A DNA stretch of 63,280 nt, filler included, from an uncultured Methanosarcinales archaeon (lineage in GTDB: Archaea > Nanobdellota > Nanobdellia > Woesearchaeales > CAYMBN01): the NCBI GenBank assembly GCA_964388715.1. It is 4 parts of 4 records of this genome, joined end to end, with 100 filler letters (N's around TTAATTAATTAA, not from the genome) between each part and the next. Parts side by side here need not be neighbours in the genome. Positions count along the whole stretch, not along the records: positions 25,778 to 47,969 come from CAYMBN010000015.1; 3 more parts are not named here. One strand, 5' to 3'. This document shows, in pieces, positions 27,841-29,882 of this stretch. Each line of letters begins with the position of its first letter. Position 1 is the first letter of the stretch. The translations under genes were made by a program, and so were the position numbers. The notes beneath the pieces were generated by a model that did no database searches, was not told the DNA's origin, and worked only from the letters and a program-made list of their open reading frames with translations.

Positions 27841-27998
27841 TGGACTCGTCGGGAAGTTCACAATTTTTGCCTAAACAAAAATCGTTTTGAACCCGAGGCC
27901 CCCTCCTGTCTTTGTGTATTTGGAAGCCAAAAATTTGCTTTGCAAATTTAACTTCCCACATGCAAGGGAGGTGCTCTACCGGACTGAGCTACGAGCCC
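27841..27998 (-). tRNA. tRNA-Ala(UGC) with two introns (37/38 at 27908-27960; 59/60 at 27855-27885)
   Basis: Spliced sequence GGGCTCGTAGCTCAGTCCGGTAGAGCACCTCCCTTGCA|AGGAGGGGGCCTCGGGTTCAAA|TCCCGACGAGTCCA folds as a cloverleaf with G3:U70; located in the 16S-23S spacer. Confidence 0.93.
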
Positions 27999-28022
27999 AT
28001 ATAATTCAATGAAAATAAAAAA

Positions 28023-28038
28023 GTTAGTTTGATAAGAA
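28023..28038. repeat. arm of the 16S processing stem (pairs with 29700-29715)
   Basis: gttagtttgataagaa is the exact reverse complement of ttcttatcaaactaac on the other side of the 16S gene. Confidence 0.8.
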
Positions 28039-28624
28039 AAAAAAAGGAGGTGATCCCACCGCAGGTTCCCCTACGGTTACCTTGTGACGACTTAACCTGC
28101 CTCGCGGAGTTCAGATTCGATATAATCAAAGATTACATCTCACCTAAACCCTACTCAGATGGTTTGACGGGCGGTGTGTACAAGGAGCAGGGACATATTC
28201 ACCGGACAATGATGATGTCTGGTTACTAGGGATTCCATTGTCATGAGGATGAGTTACAATCCTCAATCTAGACTTGGATAAGGTTTCCAGGATTAGCTTC
28301 TCCTCTCGGAGTTGCATCCCATTGTCCTTACCATTGTTGCGCGCGTGTAGCCCAGAAGATTCGGAGCATACAGACCTACCGTAGCCTACACCTTCCTCCT
28401 TGTTTCCAAGGCAGTCCCCACAATGTGCTCAGTCATAAAACCTGTTAGCAATTGTAGGTATAGGTCTCGCTCGTTGCCTGACTTAACAGGACACCTTACG
28501 GCACGAGCTGACGACGGCCATGCACTACCTCTCGGCTCGTCAAGTAAGCCCTTTAGACTGACTTTCATCCTGCCGTCGCCCCTGGTGAGATTCTCTGCGT
28601 TGAATTAGATTAAACCGCACGCCG

Positions 28625-28681
<57 letters not shown>

Positions 28682-28780
28682 TCCCAGGCGGCGAGCTTAA
28701 CGCCTTCACTTCGACACTGCACATTCACGGAGAATATGCAACACCTTGCTCGCAACGTTTACAGCTAGGACTACTCGGGT

Positions 28781-28886
28781 AATTAGCGAGTAAATCTTCA
28801 TTTAATTTCTTTCTTTAATTCGTAAAGTAGATCTTATAACAAATTTACGAGCTAATTCCAGAAATTTTTTTACGAAAATTTCTCGT
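28781..28886 (-). other. 106-nt 16S intron at E. coli-equivalent 793/794
   Basis: Splits GGATTAGAT|ACCC; BHB with helix ttag/ctaa and bulges at|a and tt|a. Confidence 0.85.
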
Positions 28887-29261
28887 ATCTAATCCGTTTT
28901 GCTCCCCTAGCTTTCGTCCCTCACCGTCGAAACCGTTCTAGCTAGACGCCTTCGCCACAGGTAGTCTATTTAGGATTATAGCATTTTACCGCTCCCCTAA
29001 ACATTCTTCTAGCCCCTCCCGGTTCCAAGTTCAGCAGTGTCTTCTGCACGCCGTTAAGTTAAGCCCAACGATTTCACAAAAGATTTACTGAACAGGCTAC
29101 GGACGCTTTAGGCCCAATAAAAGCGGTCACCACTCGGAGCGCTGGTGTTACCGCGGCGGCTGGCACCAGTCTTACCCACTCCTTATTCGCTAAGCTATTT
29201 ACACTTAAAAAAAGCCTATGTAATACATAAGCACTTAGGGTTCCCTTATCACACTTTCGTG

Positions 29262-29300
<39 letters not shown>

Positions 29301-29372
29301 AGGACCAGTATCTCAGTGTCCTTCTCGGGGCTACCACTCTCATGGCCCCTACGGATCTTTGGCTTGGTGGGC

Positions 29373-29409
29373 ATGTAATTTACAGAGCAAATTATGCAGC
29401 TCCGCAAAC
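29373..29409 (-). other. 37-nt 16S intron in helix 11 (~E. coli 265)
   Basis: Splits GGGGTAAAG|GCCCACC; canonical BHB with helix gtaa/ttac, bulges ag|g and at|g, and a 10-bp intron stem. Confidence 0.88.
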
Positions 29410-29882
29410 CTTTACCCCGCCAACAACCTAATCCGCCGCCGACTCATCCTTAGGCATTTCTTTTAAAGGAAAACTCATTCCAGAATTTTTCCCCTATCCG
29501 GTTTTAGCCTCAGTTTTCCAAGGTTATCCCAGACCTAAGGGCAGATTATCGACGTGTTACTGAGCAGTTTGCCTGTGCTTCCGAAGAAGCCCTCTGACTT
29601 GCATGGCTTAATCGAACCCTAATAGCAGCGACCTCCCGCAGGATCAACGGGAATTTTATTCGGTTTGGTCACAAATTTAAAATAGGAATTTCAAACGTGT
29701 TCTTATCAAACTAACAATACTTAATTTTTACGTTAAGTACTTCCGTGCTTAATTATAAAAATTAAACACTTATTAAAACAAGATAGCAAATGCTAGGTTG
29801 TTTTTATTGATCTATATGTTACTTAGAATTTTATATCTAAAATATAGATTTGGTGGCGATACCTTTTTAGGAGATATAAGTC

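Follow-up and report, generated by a model that had tools for sequence, protein, structure and literature searches.

The insert in the 790 loop and its host

The DNA described here contains an archaeal 16S rRNA gene interrupted by 106 nt in the 790 loop, which raises the question of what this insert is, how the loop could be restored in the rRNA, how common such inserts are, and what they mean for surveys based on the primers that bind there. The window, i.e., the whole stretch of 63,280 nucleotides that was analysed, consists of four joined contigs of the host genome G000 (1.30 Mb, approximately 30% GC, 95.75% complete), and its features are collected in Table 1. The evidence brought together below makes it highly probable that the insert is a protein-spliced archaeal BHB intron, cut by EndA and ligated by RtcB, which most likely represents an ORF-less homing remnant and splits the binding site of primer 806R.

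Table 1. Features of the rRNA operon in the window (positions along the whole stretch).
Feature	Position	Strand	Details
tRNA-Ala(UGC)	27841..27998	-	16S–23S spacer; two introns; ARAGORN calls the in-silico spliced form
tRNA-Ala introns	27960-27908; 27885-27855	-	53 nt at 37/38; 31-nt BHB in T-loop
Archaeal 16S rRNA gene	28045..29654	-	sole copy in assembly; 1467 nt without both introns
806R site, 3' exon part	28768..28780	+	13 nt (adjacent base also matches by chance)
3' half of BHB	28780..28790	-	intron stem CUCG 28790-28787; central-helix CUAA 28786-28783; 3-nt bulge cut 28781/28780
16S intron, predicted	28781..28886	-	106 nt, ORF-less BHB; E. coli 16S numbering 793/794, in the 790 loop of helix 24
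5' half of BHB	28882..28892	-	central-helix UUAG 28892-28889; 3-nt bulge cut 28887/28886; intron stem CGAG 28885-28882
806R site, 5' exon part	28887..28893	+	7 nt, the primer's 3' end
515F primer site	29148..29166	-	intact, 0 mismatches
Second 16S BHB intron, predicted	29373..29409	-	37 nt; helix 11 loop, ~E. coli 265/266; perfect BHB, 10-bp stem

The insert has a GC content of 24.5%, lies within the match to archaeal SSU rRNA (28045-29654), and is interrupted by stops in all six frames, with a stop-free maximum of about 30 codons. On sequence alone, the 790 loop can be restored by deletion in four registers, whereas BHB geometry allows only the cut after U793; moreover, 13 of the 114 distinct homologues have end bases that fix the junction at 793/794 (E. 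coli numbering, derived from the name of primer 806R, site 787–806) without register ambiguity. An initial sequence-only reading of this DNA had described an ORF-less, AT-rich insert of this length, whose removal by BHB cleavage rules restores the loop at 793/794, and both statements hold in the present analysis. The misassembly that it had named as a possible refutation is not borne out: contigs of 148 nt spanning 28756-28903 were found with 0 differences in the DNA runs X1 and X2, from two studies, although their flanks of 25 and 17 letters fall below the 31-letter bridging threshold and X1 is possibly the sample of origin. Together with more than 100 other genomes in which the site is occupied, these contigs establish that the insert is due neither to chance nor to misassembly.

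The host assembly contains no intron-free copy of the 16S gene. Its nearest titled 16S relatives are 86–88% identical and mostly labelled Woesearchaeota (L093: 87.5%) and, thus, the host is read as a Woesearchaeota-like member of the DPANN. The runs that hold the organism best are seawater metagenomes, and the 23 runs listed include no amplicon run.

Structure of the junction and its conservation in homologues

The predicted BHB consists of a 4-bp central helix between two 3-nt bulges located at the exon–intron junctions. In the pre-rRNA, the exon UUAG (788–791) would pair with the intron CUAA, and the motif would be closed by the intron stem on one side and, beyond an A787–C795 mismatch, by helix 24 on the other. 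The bulges read AU/A and UU/A, where the slash marks the cut, and cuts after the second bulge base restore the conserved 16S loop. The central helix has a probability of 0.86 in the short-flank ensemble, and the precursor is more stable than shuffled sequences (z = -2.9). In the minimum-energy fold the central helix has 5 bp, since A787 pairs with the first bulge U, a non-productive register in which the loop is not restored; however, 63 of the 114 homologues have a base other than U at the first bulge position, so that conservation lies with the 4-bp register. The non-Watson–Crick pair adjoining the 3' bulge, A787–C795, is A–C in every one of them.

A search of genome contigs with the 3'-junction pattern returned at least 118 matching stretches. 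Among the matches listed, 80 record titles comprise 32 Woesearchaeota, 10 Nanoarchaeota/Nanoarchaeia/Nanobdellati, 9 Aenigmatarchaeota, 9 labelled 'archaeon', 2 Pacearchaeota, 2 Parvarchaeota, 2 Asgard, 2 Thermoproteota, 1 Euryarchaeota, and 11 labels that are distrusted. Hosts titled Methanosarcinales (10/80) and Aminicenantes (1/80) are not accepted as such, given that L031, L048, L078, L104, L109, and L072 are placed among Woesearchaeota in the tree; these records are likely mislabelled or mis-binned.

The full intron could be parsed in 121 of 128 loci, the others having no matching junction or no 5' exon, which yielded 114 distinct introns of 20–745 nt (median 105). Stem pair 1 is Watson–Crick in all of them (CG 51, UA 51, GC 12). 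Stem pairs 1–4, whose bases lie outside the search pattern, are paired in 97.6% of cells, compared with 50% (max 58%) after exchange of arms among the introns and 21–46% in shifted registers, figures to be read with the relatedness of the introns in mind, as these are not statistically independent. The exon pairs of helix 24 are likewise maintained in 114/114 homologues. The flanking intron and exon helices are thus maintained through compensatory change.

Splicing machinery and the rRNA operon

The host genome encodes an EndA of 177 aa (G000:C2; PF01974 and PF02778), the single subunit found, and contains two matches to RtcB. The single-subunit type of EndA is the stricter type of the enzyme and, together with the A787–C795 pair, it counts against the splicing proposed here. 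According to established archaeal biology, EndA would cleave both bulges and RtcB would ligate the exons, restoring the 790 loop, while the excised 106-nt intron would probably be released as a small circle; the motif and the enzymes are present in the sequence itself.

The use of EndA would not be limited to this intron. The tRNA-Ala(UGC) gene in the same operon was overlooked by ARAGORN and Rfam until its two introns were removed in silico, and it provides context for EndA use within the operon. In the whole host genome, ARAGORN made just 21 tRNA calls, 15 of them with introns and, thus, more multi-intron tRNAs are probably hidden. These calls include two for tRNA-His(GUG) and a doubtful one for tRNA-SeC (G000:C1 and C12).

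The 37-nt intron in the helix 11 loop, which the sequence-only reading does not mention, was assigned to about 265/266 by its distance from the 349F site, on the assumption that no indels intervene. Inserts at this site occur in 14 of 110 aligned loci, a count to which the locus in the window and some duplicates contribute. In loci L001-L110, further recurrent inserts in the 16S are found in the 690 loop (10 loci), at ~908 inside the 926R site (at least 9 loci), inside or adjoining the 515F site (~6 loci), and at ~1391 (4 loci, 428–836 nt), and L095, L089, L066, and L035 carry at least 6 inserts apiece. The Caldiarchaeum loci 722, 908, and 978 of Jay and Inskeep agree with inserts in L050 and L151-L153. 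In the assembled part of the 23S gene, no clear inserts were seen in comparison with 10 relatives that cover only a portion of it. The 16S gene is flanked by a stem (~29699-29714 with 28022-28037, minus strand) that forms a continuous duplex of 16 bp or more in which no BHB is evident, and it differs in this from the processing stem customary in archaea.

RNA contigs and alternative explanations

The RNA evidence consists of contigs, and one of the two runs concerned, X4, is labelled 'probably DNA'. Both X4 and X5 show zero depth in the intron bin 28805-28871 and also none outside the 16S gene, while their exon contigs are identical to the window (218 and 140 nt in X4; 98, 152, and 125 nt in X5). 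A contig joined across the 106-nt intron is present in X4 (side 23) and also in the DNA run X1 (side 18) and, thus, may derive from intron-free relatives. The joint across the 37-nt intron was seen only in X4 and X5, and the X4 contig listed differs at 4 other letters in 92. No spliced junction unique to the organism was found among the RNA contigs, which give no more than a weak hint of splicing, and splicing itself we infer.

This result is also what would be expected if the insert were excised and the exons not rejoined, leaving a fragmented 16S rRNA like that produced by bacterial intervening sequences. Such an outcome is very improbable, given that the host has RtcB and that the predicted cuts restore the loop exactly in all homologues, including the 13 with unambiguous ends; moreover, the 790 loop belongs to the functional core of the small subunit. 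Retention of the insert in mature rRNA as an expansion segment would agree with the conserved interior and long irregular hairpin of the ~105-nt introns, but it has to accommodate homologues from 20 to 745 nt, some with endonuclease genes, that have the BHB alone in common, as well as 127 genomes of the same order without any insert, and we regard it as still more improbable. An assembly artefact or chimera might be suspected because errors are frequent in the rRNA genes of metagenome bins and because the contig breaks off within the 23S gene; against this stand the identical contigs from the DNA runs of two studies and the homologous inserts in other genomes, which leave this explanation practically no probability.

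Self-splicing introns of group I or group II have been considered as well, since group I introns occur, alongside BHB introns, in DPANN rRNA genes (PMC6125680, whose main text does not mention '793'), and a group I intron with a LAGLIDADG endonuclease occupies nominal site 793 in the mitochondrial rns of the green alga Chloroparvula pacifica, according to the available text of 10.1101/530998. However, that intron is a self-splicing ribozyme, whereas the archaeal introns at 793 have no ribozyme core and would need EndA. With 106 nt, and with as few as 20 nt among its homologues, the intron is far too small for a ribozyme core, it ends in U rather than G, and no Rfam intron model matches at gathering score or at E<=10. 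This alternative is effectively refuted, and a BHB intron spliced by proteins is retained as the reading of the insert. Two other ideas were rejected along the way: the 106-nt intron is not a genomic repeat, as G000 has no second copy and only AT-rich matches of 13–18 nt, and it is not recognizable as a box C/D guide or other known RNA, as its six Rfam matches (E 0.4–10) are all far below the gathering score.

Prevalence of introns at site 793

Among 401 genomes of the same order, the site is intact in 127, shows an intron junction in 62 (host G000 included), and neither was found in 212; no genome was seen in both the intact and the intron lists. Without the host, occupancy is 61/188 (32%), and without the unpublished G182 and G131 as well, from which the count derives in part, 59/186. 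In a sample of one genome per family, 7 of 28 relatives covering the site bear the intron (2 unclear ones left out), and in a class-wide sample it appears in 14 of 118 matches, centre genome included. In Thermoproteota, there are at least five carriers, 5/150 among the matches listed, two of five being previously known. If 16S genes with introns are easier to assemble and bin, these figures may be too high. The survey of DPANN 16S genes for inserts at position 793, which the sequence-only reading had proposed, thus reveals a scale beyond what that reading had claimed: 793 is a lineage-wide intron site.

Origin and homing

Introns at site 793 form a homing series, of which the ORF-less intron of the host may be part. 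Long LAGLIDADG ORFs are present in the site-793 introns of L065, L089, and L102, the ORF is frameshifted in L035, and L074 retains a LAGLIDADG remnant with no Pfam match. In three Thermoproteota (L151, L152, and L153, i.e., G611, G463, and G550), the site holds introns of 743 nt that are 98.7–99.9% identical to each other and contain a two-motif LAGLIDADG ORF, shortened in L151, and the 16S of these hosts is 97–99% identical over 420 nt; such near-identical introns suggest recent homing. The Thermoproteota intron protein (L152, L153) is 33–51% identical to the LAGLIDADG proteins of DPANN introns at 793, and these proteins represent a single family common to both groups. The series fits the homing cycle described in the available text of PMC4496867, and it includes all stages at 793 (intact, broken, remnant, and 20-nt hairpin) in non-thermophilic archaea.

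The 106-nt intron, having no ORF, lacks a LAGLIDADG endonuclease, and no gene for a site-793 endonuclease was found elsewhere in the host genome, where the single match was weak (23% identity, E 1e-4). As judged from the shared site, the intron is most likely what remains of a 793-specific LAGLIDADG homing intron after loss of the ORF. The weak LAGLIDADG-like match, at G000:C1:84868-85479, lies just past a tRNA-Tyr call and is possibly a free-standing or intron-borne endonuclease.

The 106-nt intron falls into a class of ORF-less introns of ~105 nt that fold as long irregular hairpins and have a conserved interior, with 70–81% identity among top relatives and alignment scores of up to 141 compared with a shuffled maximum of 82. 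The similarity of introns does not correlate with that of the host 16S (46 loci, Mantel rho -0.01, p 0.51), and introns at least 70% identical occur in 19 of 965 distant-host pairs and in none of the shuffles. A slowly evolving structured RNA, combined with saturated host distances, could also produce similarity that does not track the hosts. It is conceivable, though we consider it rather doubtful, that 793 is an unreported archaeal homing hot spot, where a LAGLIDADG family was exchanged by Thermoproteota and a number of DPANN phyla, and that its ORF-less ~105-nt derivatives still travel laterally between distant Woesearchaeota families or persist as structured circular RNA. If this were true, data sets obtained with Taq and 515F/806R would systematically lack about one in three Woesearchaeota species.

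Relation to known rRNA introns

The 13 archaeal 16S intron loci given in the available text of Jay and Inskeep 2015 (PMC4496867) include neither 793 nor 265, which agrees with the view, already taken from the sequence, that the site is not a classical Thermoproteales position. Those introns of Thermoproteales, Desulfurococcales, and Aigarchaeota resemble the present one in their junction BHB, EndA/RtcB splicing, variety of forms, some coding for LAGLIDADG proteins and others short and non-coding, insertion into conserved loops, and disruption of universal primers; in contrast, their hosts are thermophiles, with no DPANN among those covered. In the same text, locus 803 breaks Ab789F and Arc806R and holds 3 introns, partial or uncharacterised, whereas 793 is occupied in 62/189 genomes of the present order in which the site is assembled. 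Disruption of the 806R site by an archaeal 16S intron is accordingly already in print for locus 803. Primer Ab779F, which spans 793, is marked there as broken by 781 only and, thus, locus 803 looks like a site other than 793; the idea that it is a mis-numbered 793 is not supported, as this listing and the Caldiarchaeum loci agree with the numbering (PMC4496867).

The rRNA insertions of CPR bacteria (PMC11270868) are comparable in that they occur in lineages that are uncultured or have small genomes, where 16S introns hinder amplicon surveys, but they are group I/II-like bacterial introns rather than BHB introns, and '793' is absent from the main text. Site 793 is likewise not described in the available text of PMC3082918, PMC11270868, PMC9793634, PMC8359207, and PMC8612568, and the main text on 208 complete Nanobdellota genomes (bioRxiv 10.64898/2026.05.13.725050) mentions neither rRNA introns nor this site. 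Overall, the literature search gave no report of an archaeal 793 intron or its prevalence, although subscription papers on DPANN genomes or primer gaps may contain one. With high probability, the insert is an ordinary BHB intron, at a site not found in print and commonly occupied in its order; it is of note for the survey bias and the homing series rather than for its mechanism. Giant sulfur bacteria, in work attributed to Salman in 2012, reportedly also carry 16S introns, one at a site near 795, that are group I/II-like rather than BHB and hinder amplicon surveys.

Consequences for primers and surveys

The splicing mechanism is well established, and it is in survey practice that the intron matters, as 515F/806R is a standard amplicon pair. 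On the DNA, both versions of 806R mismatch at 4 positions (6, 5, 2, and 1, counted from the 3' end) and 805R mismatches at 6, and all of these mismatches disappear once the intron is removed in silico. Perfect matches on the DNA were obtained for 515F, 349F, 915R, and 926R. The matched 14-nt 5' part of 806R has a Tm near 49 °C, and priming at the other half-site is considered negligible (9 matched 3' bases, 7 mismatches, Tm ~9 °C). Among the 114 homologues, 806R has 2 mismatches in 20, 3 in 54, 4 in 36, and 5 in 4, so that the block differs in strength from one to another.

The outcome of PCR also depends on the polymerase. The available text of PMC8421222 reports that editing at the 3' end of primers is near complete and extends over as many as 6 bases with KAPA HiFi and 2 with Phusion, while Taq edits none, figures that come from single mismatches. 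Drop-out of the organism should thus hold for Taq-type PCR with 515F/806R on DNA, while KAPA HiFi might rescue the template as a product of 399 bp instead of 293 bp, which would probably be lost to length filters or 2x150 reads. Judging from the primer sites, surveys based on cDNA or on 515F/926R (523 bp) would not be blocked by the 793 intron. The sequence-only reading had noted a mismatched 3' end of 806R beside an intact 515F site, as borne out by the four mismatches in the last six bases and none in 515F. It had also predicted that V4 amplicon surveys would miss the organism, a prediction that can be expected to come true with Taq-type PCR on DNA and has to be narrowed for KAPA HiFi, cDNA, and 515F/926R.

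By splitting the genomic 806R/805R site, introns at 793 would lead Taq-based 515F/806R surveys to lose or strongly under-count this organism and approximately one quarter to one third of the order's species. Since the site is split in 61/188 other genomes of the order in which it is assembled, surveys may underestimate how diverse and abundant one of the largest DPANN groups is, in a manner that is patchy by lineage, and primer-coverage checks on intron-free references would not reveal this bias against intron-bearing lineages. Moreover, in some intron-free sites U793 is replaced by G (14 matches in the class-wide sample; G430 and G438 in Thermoproteota), which mismatches the W of 806R/806RB and thus constitutes a second, intron-free source of mismatch for these primers.
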